A program made the translations under genes and the position numbers. DNA of 64,000 bases, from the NCBI GenBank assembly GCA_047459655.1, contig JAJREF010000002.1:96001-160000 (forward strand), given 5' to 3'. The notes beneath the pieces were generated by a model that saw nothing but the letters and a program-made list of their open reading frames with translations, had not been told where the DNA came from and searched no databases. Within the stretch, counting starts at the first letter, position 1. Every line of letters starts with the position of its first letter. This document shows, in pieces, positions 11,567 to 53,084 of the stretch. This DNA comes from Rhabdochlamydiaceae bacterium (lineage in GTDB: Bacteria; Chlamydiota; Chlamydiia; Chlamydiales; Rhabdochlamydiaceae).

Positions 11567-11730
11567 GGGGTTGTAAAACAATAAAATGAACGATTTCACC
11601 GCGCCAAATCAATCGAAAATCGATGATCGGAAATGGGGTTATATCCCTATGAATACTACCCCATTTCCGATCGTCGATTTTAGACGATTTTACGCTGGTC
11701 AAATCGTTCATTTTATTGTTTTACAACCCC
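11567..11730. mobile_element. Palindromic MITE-like element A1 (164 nt, TTA direct repeats)
   Basis: GGGGTTGTAAAACAATAAAATGAACGATTT...AAATCGTTCATTTTATTGTTTTACAACCCC, near-fully self-complementary. Second copy at 37737-37900. Confidence 0.9.
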
Positions 11731-26051: not shown

Positions 26052-27516
26052 TGTCAACGCAAAATAGAAATGTCCGCTTTTCTCCAATTTAGAAATGTCC
26101 TCTTTGGATGTTCTGATCTTCATTGGACTTGTCCGTTTTTTATCTAAAATACCCATTTTCAAAAGCTCTTCTCTTATCTCCACGGGTGACTCCTTGAAGG
26201 TTTTTGAGGTTTTTTGTTTATCCAATTAAGTGCTAAATCTATTTCTTTGGACATCACAATTTTCCCTTGCGGTTCTTCCCCATATATCTTGTATTTTAAC
26301 TCCTTGCCCTTATACAGCACTCTTACCCGTCCATTGAGATCTTCTAGAAGCATGACTTTTGCTTTCCTTAGAGTGTATGATGATCTTTCACTATCGATCT
26401 GATAAAGACTGTTTTTGTATTGGAAGCTTAAGTTTTTAGAGAGACATCGGATTTCCTGGTAACTGAAAATCTCTTCTAAGTTCTCTTCTGGTTTTAAAGC
26501 TCGATGAGCATCTTCTGCGTTTCTAGGAGCTACGGCAAATTTTTTGTTATACTTCTCTATGAACTCGGGAATCCATTCATTTGCCTTTTCAATAGTTGAA
26601 ATATTTTTTTCTCTCATCTCCTTGACTAAACGATCTTGCAATGTTTGATTGGCTTTTTCAACTCTTCCTTTTGCCTGGGGTGTATTGGCACAAATGAGCT
26701 TGATATCGAGTTTTTTTAGGACTCTTCCAAACTCTGTCACTCCATTACCAGATACAGCTTCTTTGTGGTTGACTCTAAAAACTCCATATTTATCGCTGTA
26801 GAAAGCAAGTGGTTTTCCACATCTCTTTAGATACCTTTTTGTCGCTTTAAAATAAGATTCTGTTGTTTCACCAAGAGAAAAAAACAGCTCGACAAGTCTA
26901 CTAGTTGCATCATCAATGTATACTAAAAGGGTACACCTGGGTCCTCTATTTTCAAACCAGTCATGGGGAGATCCGTCTATTTGTACAAGATCTCCATACT
27001 GACTCCTTCTTGGTCTCATCGGGTGGATAACTGCCTTTTTAGCTTTTTTAGGAGACCAAATATTTTCTTCTATCATCCATTTCCTAAGCGTCTCTATAGA
27101 CAATGTAAGCTTATGTTTTTCCTCTAACTTTTCTTGAGCTAACGTAGGGCCATAATCTGCATAATGAGCGGAAATCAGCTTTAGGACTTGTGATCTAAAA
27201 GCTTCTGTTAACCTGCGATTACTAGGCTGCCCTCTCTTTTGGAAACTAAGCCAGCTTCTCCATGCAGTTCGTAAGCTTGTTTTAAACGTCTAACTTGTCT
27301 GGCTGTTATCCCCAGACGTTGTCCCACTTCTATCTGGGAAAAGCTTTTTCTTTTTAAATTGCGCATCATTTCAACTCTTTCTAATTCTCTTCTGCTCATA
27401 GTTATCAACTCCTTCACTCTCACCTCCTTTCAAAAACAAATTTGAATGAGGTCAGTATCTTCAAAAGAGGACATTTCTATTTAGCAGAAAGAGGACATTA
27501 TCATTTTGGGCTAACA
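26052..27516 (-). mobile_element. Insertion sequence, IS1202-family-like (ISNCY), 1465 bp with 14/15-bp target duplication
   Basis: Ends TGTCAACGCAAAATAGAAATGTCC and GGACATTATCATTTTGGGCTAACA; repeated subterminal TAGAAATGTCC; flanks CAAAAA(A)GGGAATGA at 26038-26051 and 27517-27531. Confidence 0.9.
26174..27423 (-). CDS. DDE transposase (frameshift near 27230)
   Basis: N-terminal HTH (LGITARQVRRL), QIDGSPHDWFE, YIDDATS, YSDK, PQAKGRVEKANQTLQDRL. Confidence 0.92.
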
Positions 27517-27567
27517 CAAAAAAGGGAATGATTGTAAAAAAATTCAATAGGTGCTAAAGTCATTCCC

Positions 27568-32214: not shown

Positions 32215-32301
32215 ACTCACCTTACACAAAAAAGATAGGTCATGGAGTGTTTGAAAGCTGTTGAAACACTCCATGACCTATCCTTTTTGCGTAAGGTGAG
32301 T
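32215..32301. mobile_element. Palindromic element C1 (internally deleted, 87 nt) with TAAATA direct repeats
   Basis: ACTCACCTTAC..GATAGGTCATGGAGTGTTT / AAACACTCCATGACCTATC..GTAAGGTGAGT. Full-length copy at 50531-50693. Confidence 0.88.
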
Positions 32302-37736: not shown

Positions 37737-37900
37737 GGGGTTGTAAAACAATAAAATGAACGATTTGACCAGCGCAAAATCGTCTAAAATCGACGATCGG
37801 AAATGGTTTAGTATTCATAGGGATACAACCCCATTTCCGATCATCGATTTTCGATTGATTTGGCGCGGTGAAATCATTCATTTTATTGTTTTACAACCCC
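37737..37900. mobile_element. Palindromic MITE-like element A2 (164 nt, inverted relative to A1)
   Basis: Same termini as A1; flanks CAA / TAA. Confidence 0.9.
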
Positions 37901-38265: not shown

Positions 38266-39581
38266 CTAATTTAAAAGCTGCCAAAGATTGGTGTAGTTCG
38301 CGCCTTTGATCAATACAACATCACCCGGTCTTAAGGTATCAAAAGCAACTTTCTTCAGCTGCTCAATGTCTGAAAAAAACTCAACCGTTTTTCCTGCTTG
38401 TTTAAAAACATCTACCATGGGCAAACACTGTTTCCCTAATAAAAAGGCATGATCCACCTTTAAAACGGCACATGCTGCGACTTCTTTGTGGTTCTTTTCA
38501 GAATAAACCCCTTGCCCTGAAAGCTCTCCTAATATAGCAATCGTTTTTCCACCGAGTGCGGGAATAGGCAGGCTTTTGATTGCGGCTTTTGCAGCTTCTG
38601 GGCTTGCATTGTAAGAATCATTGATAAAAATAACACCATTCCTTTCTACTCTTTCAAAGCGCAGCTCTACTCCTTTTAAGAATCTCCCTTTTTTAAAAAT
38701 CTCTTCCCACTCTAATCCCATTTCTCTTGCAACAGTTGCTGCTGCTAAAAAGTTTTCAGCAAAATGATCCTCTTCGAAAGGAAGTTCGAACTGCCGCGTC
38801 TCTTGCCCCCTCTCTTGAATAAACCACCCTCTTTTAAGAAAAAAATCTGCTGGCCTATCAAAGCCAAATGTAATCTTCTTTTCTAAAGACAACTCCCCTA
38901 GCCTCTTAAACAGGAGTGCCTCTGCATTGATGATCCCAACTTTTGTTTTCGGGTGGGAAAAGATCATAGACTTTTCTCTAACAATCCCTTCTTGTCCATC
39001 ACTGAAATAGCCGATGTGGGCTTGTCCAATTTTTGTTAAAAGAGCAAGATCAGGAGGAACAATCTGTACAAGCTTTTCCATTTCACCCACTTCGCTCATT
39101 CCCATTTCTATGACAAGTACATCGTACTCTTCTTTGTTATTTAAAATGAAAAGAGGCAAACCCACCTGCGAGTTGGCATTCCCAGGAGTTTTTGCTACTT
39201 TAAATCTTATCTCTAACAGAGAAGATAAAAATTCTTTTGTCGTTGTTTTTCCAACCGAGCCTGTGATAGCAATCACATATCCTTTTCGCTCAGCATGGAC
39301 TGCTTTAGCAAGCTTTTGCAACGCCTCTACCACGTTTGGCACGCGGATCAGTTTCAATCCAAAGGCGCCCCCTCTATAGTCCTGATCTACAACGGCTGCT
39401 ACCCCCCTTTGAGCGCCACCTCGTGTAAAAATTTATGCGCATCAAATTTTTGTCCTTTTAGGGCAAAAAAAACATTCCCCTTCTTTACCTGCTTGCTGTC
39501 GATGACAAACCCATCAATCTCTGCTTCTTCTGTTTTGATATCTAAAATCTTTCCTAGCTTGCTCAAGGTAGTTAGTTGCAT
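38266..39581 (-). CDS. murF: UDP-MurNAc-tripeptide--D-Ala-D-Ala ligase (frameshift near 39400)
   Basis: IDSK..FFALKG..DAH, ITGSVGKTTTKE, EMGMS, INDSYNASP. Confidence 0.93.
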
Positions 39582-41827: not shown

Positions 41828-43422
41828 ATGTCCGCTGAAGCCAAGGAACTTATCTTTCAAGAAGAAGCAATAGAGAAATTACGGGAAGGTATTGAAAAGC
41901 TGTCAGATGTCGTAAGCGTAACTTTGGGCCCTAAAGGAAGAAGCGTAGGAATAGAGGCATCTTACGGCTCTCCTAATCTTACTAATGACGGACATACTGT
42001 GGTGCAGGGGATCGAGTTCAAAGACCAATACGTCAATATGGGCGCTTCGATGGCTAAAGAAGTAGCTACCAAGATGAAAGAAATCTGTGGAGATGGAACC
42101 ACAACCAGCATTTTACTTCTTAGATCCCTTGTGCAAAACGGAATTAAAAATATCACATCCGGTGCCAGTCCTATTCTTTTAAAAAGAGGGATGGACAAAG
42201 CTGTTGCAGCTGTGATTGCAGAAATAGAAAAAATCTCTATCCCTATTCAAACAGATAAAGACATTCAAAACATTGCATTAATTTCTGGATCTGGTGACGA
42301 AGAAGTGGGCGCCTTTATTGCAGAGGCTATCAAAAAAACAGGGAAAGAAGGGTCATTACCATAGAGGAAGGAAAGAGTACAGACACAGTGATTGAAATCG
42401 TGGAAGGAATGCAGTTTGAAAGAGGCTATACAAGTTCTTACTTCTGCACAAATACAGAAAATCTGTCGGTAGAGCTCACCAATGCAAAAATTTTAATCAC
42501 CGACAAAAAAATCTCCTCTATTCAAGAAATTTTACCCATTCTCCAGTCAATTGCGGCAACAGCCACCGAGCTTTTAATCATTGCCGATGACATTGAAGGA
42601 GATGCTCTATCTACGCTTGTCGTCAATAAGCTAAGAGGAACACTAAAAGTCTGTGCTGTGAAAGCCCCTGGCTTTGGAGACCGTAGAAAAGCTTTGTTAG
42701 AAGACATTGCTATCTTAACAAATGGGACTCTAGTCTCTGAAGATAGAGGGATGACCCTACAAACAACTTCTATAGAATCTTTAGGTGAAGCAGAAAAGAT
42801 TATAATCACTAAAGATAAAACAGTGCTTGTAGGCGGCAAAGGCCCAGCAAGCGCCATTCAAGCCAGAATTGGCCAAATAGATGCTGAGATAAACCTAGCA
42901 ACAAGTTCTTATGATAAAGAAAAGTTAGAAGAGAGAAAAGCCAAGCTAGCAGGTGGTGTTGCCGTAATCCGCATTGGTGCTGCCACAGAAACAGAGATGA
43001 AAAAGAAAAAACAAGCGTTTACAGATAGTTTAAACTCCACAAGAGCTGCTCTTGCGGAAGGAATTGTACCTGGCGGCGGCCTTGCGCTCCTGCAAGCCAG
43101 CCTTGCGATCTCTCTTTCTTCTCTAAAAAATGAAGAGAAGACGGGTGCTCAGATTGTGCTCAAAGCCTGTGAAACTCCTTTCCGCCAAATTGTCTCTAAC
43201 GCAGGATTTGATAGTTCTGTTATTTTAGAACAGCTCACGGCTCTTGGTGTCAACTTTGGATTCAATGCGCAGAATGAAAAAGTAGAAAATCTTGTCCTGG
43301 CAGGTGTCGTTGATCCAACCAAAGTGGTTAAAAATGCTCTTAAATTAGCGGCTTCTGTTGCAGGAGTTGTCTTGATATCTGAAGTGTTAATTGGAAATGC
43401 GCCTGAAAACAATGTCTCTTAA
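41828..43422 (+). CDS. groEL: Chaperonin GroEL paralogue (frameshift near 42350)
   Basis: VTLGPKGR, GDGTTT, EGMQFERGY, KAPGFGDRRK, GIVPGGG, VVDPTKV. No GGM tail and no adjacent groES. Confidence 0.93.
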
Positions 43423-50512: not shown

Positions 50513-50530
50513 ATACCCACGAATTAAATA

Positions 50531-50693
50531 ACTCACCTTACGCAAAAAGGATAGGTCATGGAGTATTTGAAAGCTGTTGATAAATCGAATTGCAGAAAAT
50601 GGGTAGTATTGAATGAAATACAACCCAATTTCTGCAATTTGACTTTCAACGCTTTGAAACACTCCATGACCTATCTTTTTGCGTAAGTTGAGT
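50531..50693. mobile_element. Palindromic MITE-like element C2 (163 nt)
   Basis: Same arms as C1 plus a central hairpin; flanks TAAATA / TAAACA. Confidence 0.9.
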
Positions 50694-50787
50694 TAAACAA
50701 AAAAACTTTAACACTCCAGCTTTTTATAGTCGATTAAATTTTGATTTACAACCTTACCTTACGCAACAGGTCTATTTTATTTCTTTA

Positions 50788-50924
50788 GGAACCTCTGTAC
50801 AAGTGCTTTGTCGGAGATTGCTGATCAATTTTTCGAAGATGACGATTTTGGAAAACGCAGCTAACATACAGAATGTTAGCGAGTTTGAAAAATAGACAGC
50901 AAGATTCGGCAAATGACTTGTACA
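50788..50924. mobile_element. Palindromic element B3 (internal deletion, eroded right end)
   Basis: GGAACCTCTGTACAAGT...ACTTGTACA, body collinear with B2. Confidence 0.87.
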
Positions 50925-50928
50925 AGCC

Positions 50929-51314
50929 CTAAGGTAAAAATCTCCCTTTAGAGAAGGCAACATCTTGAAAAGATATTTTCTTGAAAAACAAATGCCTGAA
51001 AGAGGCGATAAGACGATACAAAAGATCGATAAAAGGAATCACATAAAGCCACCCCACCCACCTCCATTTTCCGCTAAAGGAGCCATACTGTGCGAAAAAC
51101 GGCCTTCCCCACGCAACCACCTCCTTCCTTCAGGAGCCTCAACTAAAACCATCGTACTTTTATCAAAGTGAGCGTGCAGATGCCTACGCGCCGTCTGTCC
51201 GGAAAGAGGAGCAAATAAAAATTGTCTTTTTTTATCGTGGTGTAAAATCCACATCACAGCATTCTGACAAAGCCCACAGGTATCATCAAAAAAAATAAGG
51301 TGATGAGATTTTAT
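50929..51314 (-). CDS. DCC-family (DUF393) thiol-disulfide oxidoreductase, frameshifted, start uncertain
   Basis: LIFFDDTCGLC, FLFAPLSG, DLLYRLIASFR. Confidence 0.8.
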
Positions 51315-53084
51315 AATAAGGTAACCTCTGGAAGCTTTTTCTTGATTGCGTCAAATTGTTTAGCTAGCTCCAGGACTTCTTCTTCACTCAACTTTCCACC
51401 ATGGATTTTAGCCTTAATAGTCTCCCTATCTTCCATCCACTGCCTTTGAAGGATTTTTCGAACCGCCTCGATAACCCCCTCTTCTGCTTTCTGTAGATTG
51501 ACTTTTCTTTGCATGATCTCTGACAAAATGGTTTGATCATCCTCCTTCTCAAGGCAAGTTGAAAAAAGGATAAAATCAAGAGCAGCACTCTCTGTCTGTA
51601 AGCAAAGCTCGTAGAGTCTACGACAAAGTGGCGTACGAAAATGGGTGGGCTGCAGATTCACTCTAATAATTTCTAAAAGTTTAGGCGTTGTTTGCCCTGC
51701 AAGCACGATCCAACGGAGGAGGTCTGCTTCTAAAATTCTATCAGGGTCAACTAAGGAGCGGGAGGCTTTCTCAGAACGCTTCATAGGAGCCATATGGAGA
51801 ACATCAACCCCAATCAGAGATTCAGGGATCCCCACAAGATCTGCGACTCTCCGTAAACTCTCATGCACCATGATGGGCTGATCCCATGCTTTGATGCGCC
51901 TTGTTACCATCTCGACAAGCTCACTCTTTCCAGACGGCGACTCGAGGTTGACCGTTTTAGAAAGATGAGCTACCAAAAAAGTTAAATAATCTCGTGATTC
52001 TTCTAGAAGTTTAACAAAGGCTTTAGGCCCTTCTTCCTTTAAAAAAGAGTCAGGATCTTTTCCTTCTGGGATAGGAACAACGGAGACTTCTACTCCCTTT
52101 TTCTGAAAGATATCTCCTATTTTTACCATTGCTTCTTGTCCCGCTGTATCTCCATCCAGCGCTAAAAAGACATGATGTACCCCTAAATTACAAAGCTCTT
52201 GCGCATGCCCCTCTCCAAAAGCCGTTCCCTGACCTGCCACCGTAAAATTAAACCCTGTATGGATCAGCCGCAGTGCATCAATCTGCCCCTCTACGATGAT
52301 TGCTTTCCGATCTTTGGCAATCCGTTTTCTAGAGTAACTCAGCCCAAACAACACCTGAGACTTTTTAAAAAGAGGCGTCTCTGCTGTATTGATGTACTTA
52401 CCTCCAAATGTCTCTTCCTTGATCTTACGCGCTGAAAAACCAATCACAGATCCGAGCGCGTCACGAATGGGAAAGGTAATCCTCTCGGAAAAAAAGTCCC
52501 GTTTGCGGCCACTTTCTGTGACCAACATAAGCCCTGCCTGTTCCAAAACAATATCTGGTATTCCTTCTGCTTTCATCACTTGTTGGAATAGCTCTTTGGC
52601 AATAGGGGCATACCCCACCTCGAAAAATCGAATAAAATCAAGGTCGATACCCCGATCATCAGAGATAGTGCAAAGCCTTTTGCCCTTCCTCGGTATAAAG
52701 GAGAGCAAAATGATAAAATCTAGATGCTTTTTGGAGCGCTTCTTTCAGCTGCGTTTTAGAAGGCCCCGATCTTTTAGCGCCTGCCTCCTCTTTTTCTAGA
52801 TGCACTCCAAAGCGATCCGCCAAATGCTCAATAGCATCAGAAAAGCTCATCTTGAGATGAGACATCAAAAAAGCAATCGCATCGCCATGCGCCCCACATC
52901 CAAAACAGTGGTAGTGCGTATCCCCCTTTTGCATCACGAAAGAAGGCGTTTTCTCCTCATGAAAAGGGCACAGCGCTTTGTAAGATGCCCCTGCTCTTTT
53001 TAAATTTATGTGGGAAGATAAAACCTCTGCCAGATCAATTTTCTGTTTTAAAGTGTCTAAACTCTCTTTTTTATATAATGCCAC
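51311..53084 (-). CDS. dnaG: DNA primase (frameshift near 52660)
   Basis: CPFHEEKTPSF..CFGC zinc finger, KYINT, VEGQID, DGDTAG, KDPD. Confidence 0.96.

Follow-up and report, generated by a model that had tools for sequence, protein, structure and literature searches.

Hairpin elements in the window

The window, which is the whole 64,000-nt stretch analysed (positions 96001-160000 of contig C2 of the Rhabdochlamydiaceae genome G000, an assembly of 1.61 Mb in 5 contigs that is 82% complete), carried hairpin elements of two families, A and C (Table 1). A 196-nt stretch with the family C element C2 folded as RNA at -98.4 kcal/mol with a z of -16.3. The left half of the outer core motif of C2 had its partner at positions 50651-50657, and the pairing left a G.G mismatch and a one-base bulge. 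Directly after C2, positions 50726-50921 held an F9-type end fragment, a C-end fragment and a shortened family B copy, showing that hairpin elements pile up at one another's ends.

Table 1. Positions of the hairpin elements of the window and of the parts of element C2.
Feature	Position	Strand	Remarks
Family C element C2, quasi-palindrome over its whole length, 161 nt	50532..50692	+	From sequence and fold
C2 left target duplication, 8 bp	50524..50531	+	Right copy 50693-50700, one mismatch
C2 IS701-type terminal repeat	50532..50547	+	Mirror copy 50677-50692; identical to right end of the G161 L412 element
C2 outer core motif, left half (G before AAAGC, extra T)	50567..50575	+	
C2 inner core hairpin, variable paired stem	50582..50649	+	Region described in the initial annotation
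C2 apex (TAGTATT, 6-nt loop, AATACAA), A.A mismatch six bases from the loop	50604..50623	+	
Family A element A2, 164 nt, ISAzo13-type ends, flanks CAA/TAA	37737..37900	+	Core from 37787, TAGTATT at 37809
Family A element A1, 164 nt, 3-bp TTA duplication	11567..11730	-	Core on minus strand
Short C copy, 85 nt, apex lost, 8-bp target duplication	32216..32300	+	

Among the other features of the window, positions 26052-27518 were one of about 10 near-identical 1.47-kb ISNCY/IS481-like copies with TGT...ACA ends, which were unlike the hairpin ends. The groEL gene (41828-43422) was apparently split in two frames, and murF (38266-39357) and dnaG (51311-52708) were without the N-terminal part of their profiles. 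Another contig differed by one base in dnaG, and these defects are probably assembly frameshifts.

Similarity of the C and A cores

The initial annotation had proposed that the central hairpins of families A and C align without gaps. The C2 core carried the quoted sequence at 50582-50649. The alignment was reproduced with this core identical to the A2 core (37787-37854) at 45 of 68 positions and to the core of A1, read on the minus strand of the element at 11567-11730, at 46 of 68. In either family the core began 50 nt in from the end of the element, the A.A mismatch lay six bases from the loop in A1, A2 and C2, and the variable block differed between the families on both sides of the stem, all of which had been claimed. 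Two statements had to be amended. The similarity to the quoted A core was present but the string itself was a composite, as TGGGG stood before TAGTATT only in A1 and A2 had TGGTT. Secondly, a 68-nt core with unrelated arms had been described; the core was indeed common, but the module was larger and extended to another asymmetric motif, located 37-39 nt inward of either end. The clearly foreign part of the A and C elements was only the outer 16-30 nt, which were transposon ends.

A similarity no better than that of shuffled palindromes had been named as grounds for refuting the shared hairpin. The local scores of C2 were 49 with A1 and 45 with A2 against a null mean of approximately 20, and the numbers of shuffled palindromes that reached the C-A scores were 0, 0, 1 and 0 of 5000 in four tests. 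In addition, a core profile (nhmmer HMM) trained exclusively on 54 cores from genomes other than G000 was searched against G000; A1 and A2 were recovered with E ~1e-10, C2 with E 1.3e-6, and the best match on the reversed genome had E 0.68. Because the scores were far above those of shuffled palindromes and an independent HMM recovered the same cores, the C-A core similarity is real and homologous and not a by-product of palindromy.

Distribution and layout of the elements

A total of 81 hairpins of 140-185 nt were found in G000, in 16 clusters. The core was common to at least eight G000 families (C, A, F3, F5, F7, F9, F12 and one copy nested in family B), and other G000 families such as the IS5-ended family B had different cores. 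Family A had two full-length copies in G000, both in the window, plus six short forms with both ends. Family C had approximately 11 near-full-length copies, and core matches genome-wide were approximately 30. One C copy was counted twice because it lay in an 11.5-kb stretch duplicated at 99.6% (contig C1, 652364-663858 and contig C4, 3262-14749), which like other contig-end overlaps is probably assembly redundancy.

The exact pattern of outer motif plus apex was present in 66 of 401 Chlamydiota genomes (G000 included) with up to 82 matches per genome, and the reversed control gave 0. No exact core pattern was found in the 30 genomes searched of one family of small Chlamydiota genomes. The titles of the pattern-matched records, among the matches listed, were chlamydial for 51 of 80, unlabelled for 22, Verrucomicrobiae for 5, and Acidobacteriota and Chitinophaga for 1 each, and the listed Chitinophaga match was not a hairpin. 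Flanking proteins were 45-88% identical to G000 proteins at 12 of the 16 matched loci tested among those listed, and these 12 included the Acidobacteriota locus and 4 of the 5 Verrucomicrobiae loci. Viral contigs gave 0 matches to the core pattern and 16 matches to the 16-nt C end. There were 142 distinct pattern matches, from which 12 outside 155-215 nt were left out. With crude gene calls, copies were mostly intergenic (9 of 130 inside an ORF). The core alignment left out L045, a perfectly symmetric contig-end copy that is possibly an assembly artefact, while matches near locus ends, flank duplicates and copies with fewer than 52 paired positions of 74 were left out of a larger set of 219 copies in 87 clusters. 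Two metagenome contigs (L171 and L172) carried elements of approximately 165 nt in which ISAzo13-type ends enclosed another core; the neighbouring genes were not chlamydial-looking, and the design of ends plus core at this length may extend beyond Chlamydiota.

From the end inward, the elements consisted of a transposon end of 16-30 nt, a variable paired arm, the outer motif, a variable stem and the apex. In families C, A, F5 and F3 the outer motif lay 37-39 nt and the apex 72-73 nt from the end. The outer motif read G-AAAGC-T on one arm and C-AAAGC on the other, so that a G.G or C.C mismatch and a bulge of one base resulted, and the apex across the family was TAGTATT, a loop of 3-7 nt and AATACAA. 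Mismatches and bulges clustered at fixed distances and perfect stem runs had a median of 24 bp. Several positions outside the fixed search pattern were conserved at approximately 1 bit and were interleaved with freely changing paired blocks. The outer G/C mismatch, which was free in the search pattern, was kept in 68 of 87 clusters. The A.A mismatch and the apex columns were fixed by the pattern and the conservation of A.A is thus pattern-dependent; a loose pattern without the fixed apex gave a few variant apexes (A.G, T.T or fully paired) and mostly chance matches. The element length was 160-165 nt in 47 of 54 measurable clusters with a peak at 162-163 nt irrespective of end and core type. 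Family B, with IS5-type ends and an unrelated core, measured 162 nt in 45 of 65 copies.

Terminal repeats and target duplications

A complete IS701-family element of 1179 bp in genome G161 (L412), with a transposase matching NF049921 at E 4e-105, had one end identical to the first 16 nt of C and the other identical over 15 nt. The G161 element had a 7-bp target duplication in 5 of 5 copies checked. Duplications of C were exact at 6-8 bp in 9 of 15 paired copies, and 13 of 15 had at most one mismatch. C-type ends also flanked an IS701 transposase on a plasmid record. The ends of A, F5 and the nested copy (N) matched both ends of a complete 1300-bp ISAzo13 element (L181; NF033519, E 2e-180) with a TTA duplication, and exact 3-bp duplications were present in 7 of 8 A copies and 4 of 4 F5/N copies. 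A broken ISAzo13 with a similar end was present in G000. The commonest ends in other genomes were flanked by TA and were IS630-like, a looser match than for the IS701 and ISAzo13 ends, with 14 of 58 cluster termini above the 99% shuffle threshold against IS630 ends (obtained from 16 of 31 loci) and some pairs weak. The target duplication followed the end type, being 6-8 bp, 3 bp and TA, respectively.

An ISAs1 origin of the C ends, suspected from a neighbouring fragment in another genome (G001), was rejected. None of 30 chlamydial ISAs1 loci carried the C end, those with clear ends began with CAG, and C did not show the ISAs1 ends with 9-10 bp duplication expected of an ISAs1-derived MITE.

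Homology to the IS ended after approximately 16 nt in C or 20-30 nt in A/F5. The core HMM had no match inside an autonomous IS at 45 IS loci, and its sole match there lay outside its IS. The 82%-complete G000 yielded no intact transposase of the IS701, IS630 or ISAzo13 type, and the IS630 domain PF13358 had no match in this genome. The elements were short, non-coding and multi-copy, with terminal inverted repeats that matched autonomous IS and target duplications of the parent length, as in MITEs. Deletion from a parent IS is the usual origin of MITEs and not a strict requirement; the interiors of C and A/F5 were not recognisable as deletion products of the parent IS.

Other mobile elements of G000 were also recorded. 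An IS5-family element (contig C3, 6643-7826; L001) had the same ends as family B, which with 65 paired copies outnumbered every other hairpin family of G000. A core-bearing element with ISAzo13-type ends and an exact TAA duplication lay in the centre of a family B copy (contig C2, 90318-90481). A 1.49-kb IS4-family element was present in approximately 7 copies, and its ends were unlike the hairpin ends.

Combination of ends and cores

The termini had been claimed to be exchangeable, and the claim is supported more strongly than was proposed, as the termini were the inverted repeats of several IS families that differ in target duplication, and copies with two arm types exist. C-ended elements of 147-168 nt in other genomes had no core-profile match in 8 of 9 cases and a weak one (E 0.037) in the remaining case. 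IS701-type ends enclosed other interiors of 147-168 nt in other chlamydial genomes at L400, L403, L409, L411, L417, L418, L424, L426 and L429, and some of these interiors were apparently branched rather than rod-like. Since the core was not found inside autonomous IS and C ends occur on unrelated cores, ends and cores combine freely.

Dissimilar ends were found in 16 of 219 copies, and of the 10 that were examined, 6 had arms matching two different symmetric families; the L320 hybrid, for example, had one TATAC-type arm and one CTAGT-type arm. The hybrid copies were taken from assembled metagenomes; either recombination within the core or a chimeric assembly join at that place could account for them. 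Short forms without the apex recurred with duplications of their own (a 70-nt form of A five times and a 49-nt form of C four times). The core may therefore be dispensable for movement, and it is also possible that the short forms arose by repeated collapse in place, with junctions at short direct repeats.

Covariation and strand tests

The covariation that had been described between the families was confirmed in a larger alignment of 56 cores, in which 91.7% of cells paired and 23 of 30 pairs changed on both sides. The covariation score was 0.559 versus 0.163 in shuffled alignments (0 of 500 shuffles as high), and sliding gave no more than 0.124. Five near-identical C copies of 162 nt differed by 14 two-sided changes (11 distinct) in the outer arms at positions 10-33, every one of them complementary, and by 15 one-sided changes. 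Covariation is not diagnostic of RNA here because two-sided changes also occurred in the outer arms, as predicted by template switching or arm-to-arm copying. Template switching is described as homogenising the arms of inverted repeats and inverting their spacers in the text available of PMC5941160 and PMC8604942. The outer G/C mismatch was retained in 68 of 87 clusters despite such a mismatch-erasing process, and this asymmetry needs explaining.

A preference for one strand was indicated by early small samples, with a ratio of G.T to A.C of 23:10 in the inner stem and a gene orientation of 14:30 (p 0.023). Both signals vanished on the set of 219 copies in 87 clusters. The G.T to A.C ratio was 39:35 in the inner stem across the 87 clusters, 71:71 for all copies, and 74:80 in the outer stem. 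Orientation to co-directional genes was 40:45 overall and 23:15 in the new set (crude longest-ORF gene calls), 3' read-through was 38:39 in the 219-copy set, and relative to GC skew the copies of G000 were oriented 14:11. The polarity of the outer mismatch relative to the apex was 36:32 in the 87 clusters, plus 9 symmetric and 10 other; the apex and the outer mismatch are thus uncoupled and no single strand carries one constant structure. In addition, both strands folded almost equally as DNA, an Rfam scan of the window gave only a tRNA, and the Y1 transposase (PF01797) had no match in the 82%-complete G000.

Taken as a whole, the initial interpretation is partly supported. Selection on the core is likely, as motifs and mismatch positions persisted across 87 clusters while the stems changed, but recognition as a strand-specific RNA or ssDNA is not supported, given the absence of bias in G.T pairs, gene orientation, GC skew and apex polarity.

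Proposed origin and alternatives

The hairpin element is very probably a modular, non-autonomous MITE. For the explanation as a whole, we lean towards a core with borrowed ends that would be moved by the cognate transposase and would be read on DNA as a spacer and protein-binding module. Movement would depend on cut-and-paste transposases acting in trans, of whichever family gave the ends. The core, as duplex or cruciform, would serve as a spacer and protein-binding module that brings together ends approximately 163 bp apart. Template switching from arm to arm would make the two-sided changes and flip the apex, and recombination through the common core followed by arm-to-arm copying would move ends between cores. 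Selection would keep the motifs and two or three mismatches, probably via a host DNA-binding or DNA-bending protein on two non-identical half-sites, with the side benefit that the palindrome would be protected by mismatches that limit the length of perfect stem runs.

Likenesses of the core to known sites were judged by eye against consensus sequences. A sigma-70 spacing (14-15 nt from a TTGA-like block to TAGTAT) was weighed and dropped, as were likenesses to the IHF consensus, attC, dif and IS605 ends, and by this comparison the core showed no convincing match to an IHF or promoter consensus. A clean empty site was not found among congeners without the element, in which the flanks differed, or in contigs of four DNA runs, which failed to span the site.

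A first alternative, which we regard as fairly unlikely, is the same MITE with a core that has no binding partner and survives because it is a palindrome that is interrupted and has the right length; copies corrected throughout would collapse or be cut, and recombination between copies would keep the core alike across families. The many collapsed short forms, the fixed distances of mismatches and bulges with their short perfect runs, the exchange through the core in hybrid copies and the several unrelated cores that reach 159-168 nt with the same ends all agree with it. However, sequence-specific motifs interleaved with freely changing paired blocks are not readily explained in this way, and neither is the recurrence of the same G/C mismatch in most clusters when any mismatch would do.

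Improbable, in our judgement, is a dedicated enzyme acting on the extruded cruciform (a nuclease, a recombinase or a replication-like protein) that copies the core or grafts ends, with the IS ends as later passengers. The precise register across end types of different transposase families would fit such an enzyme, the conserved mismatches and the bulge resemble recognition marks, a loop varying from 3 to 7 nt suits recognition of a hairpin over that of a duplex with fixed spacing, and a cruciform, in which both strands fold, requires no strand bias. Against this, the target duplications tracked the end type and not the core, and no candidate gene was found in G000, with no Y1 and one GIY-YIG match, in a long frame, that lay beside mutS and away from the elements.

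Two identical 698-bp pieces of G000 that begin with GTGCG (contig C3, 40896-41593 and contig C5, 319175-319872) lay just after a stem-loop ending in GACCTAC, inside a hairpin element of another family, and are presumably group II intron-like. Their position suggests that such hairpins fold; nevertheless, selection of the core as a folded single strand of RNA or ssDNA (for example as a substrate of an RNase or HUH enzyme), for which the strong covariation, the conserved mismatch positions and both early strand signals had also spoken, is highly improbable given that neither signal replicated, GC skew and polarity were balanced, both strands fold almost equally, and neither an Rfam match nor a Y1 transposase was found.

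Comparison with known systems

REP/REPIN sequences with RAYT and the IS200/IS605-derived PATEs are hairpins with conserved mismatches or bulges that move as single strands via a Y1 HUH enzyme and are without IS-type terminal repeats. The chlamydial hairpins share the conserved mismatches and bulges. Unlike REPINs and PATEs, they have DDE-type ends and target duplications, and no Y1 transposase or strand bias was found for them.

The nearest known systems, by their description in the part of PMC2229807 available, were RUP of Streptococcus pneumoniae (with IS630-Spn1 ends), Correia/NEMIS of Neisseria and ERIC/IRU/RU-1. As described in the same text, these MITEs are likewise non-coding, 100-200 bp long, intergenic and formed as a long stem-loop, with IS-matching terminal repeats, target duplications and insertion into other mobile elements (PMC2229807), and the 155-bp Correia MITE of Neisseria binds IHF internally (PMC2229807). 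RUP was the only MITE family tied there to an IS, and to one IS only (PMC2229807). In contrast to RUP, the chlamydial core carries IS701, ISAzo13 and IS630-like ends with differing duplication lengths, was not found inside the IS elements, and shares one end type with several other cores.

YPAL/RU-2 of Yersinia (approximately 168 bp) and the Rickettsia palindromic elements (105-146 bp) resemble the chlamydial elements in size, palindromy over the whole length and the presence of several families per genome, as far as the text of PMC2229807 available describes them. YPAL inserts next to dyad symmetries, and its duplications vary from 3 to 26 bp (PMC2229807, same part), whereas those of the chlamydial elements are fixed per end type. 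In addition, YPAL and Rickettsia elements contribute open frames fused into genes (PMC2229807, same part), while the chlamydial copies were mostly intergenic. An IS982-derived MITE in Cardinium is described in the portion available of PMC9769881. The terms 'MITE' and 'palindrom' were absent from the text available of PMC9723776, and 'chlamyd' was absent from the main text available of PMC11602168, the supplementary MITE catalogue of which may list these sequences. Finally, a full-text literature search judged by titles and openings of abstracts, with few subscription papers covered, gave no description of this family or of a core shared across IS families.

Biological meaning

The elements are a variant of the known MITE type, one conserved core being combined with the termini of at least three transposase families. 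The common view of MITEs is that of deletion relics bound to a single parent transposon. In the chlamydial elements it is the interior that persists, and the ends, taken from at least three transposase families, can be replaced. This reverses the usual picture and gives non-autonomous elements a route to survive the loss of their helper. The fixed length of approximately 163 bp across unrelated ends and cores would point to a geometric or host-protein constraint on short transposons. The elements also serve as a warning that, in a palindromic DNA repeat, even textbook covariation does not have to mean a structured RNA.

More tentatively, and with the odds rather against it, one non-coding chlamydial lineage might be a universal chassis for transposon parasites, in which a hairpin core of fixed length, bearing the motifs and recognised by a protein of the host or associated with the element, captures the ends of any resident DDE family. 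End capture would then occur by one-ended insertion and arm-to-arm copying and, if this were true, a non-coding lineage would outlive the turnover of its helper transposases.
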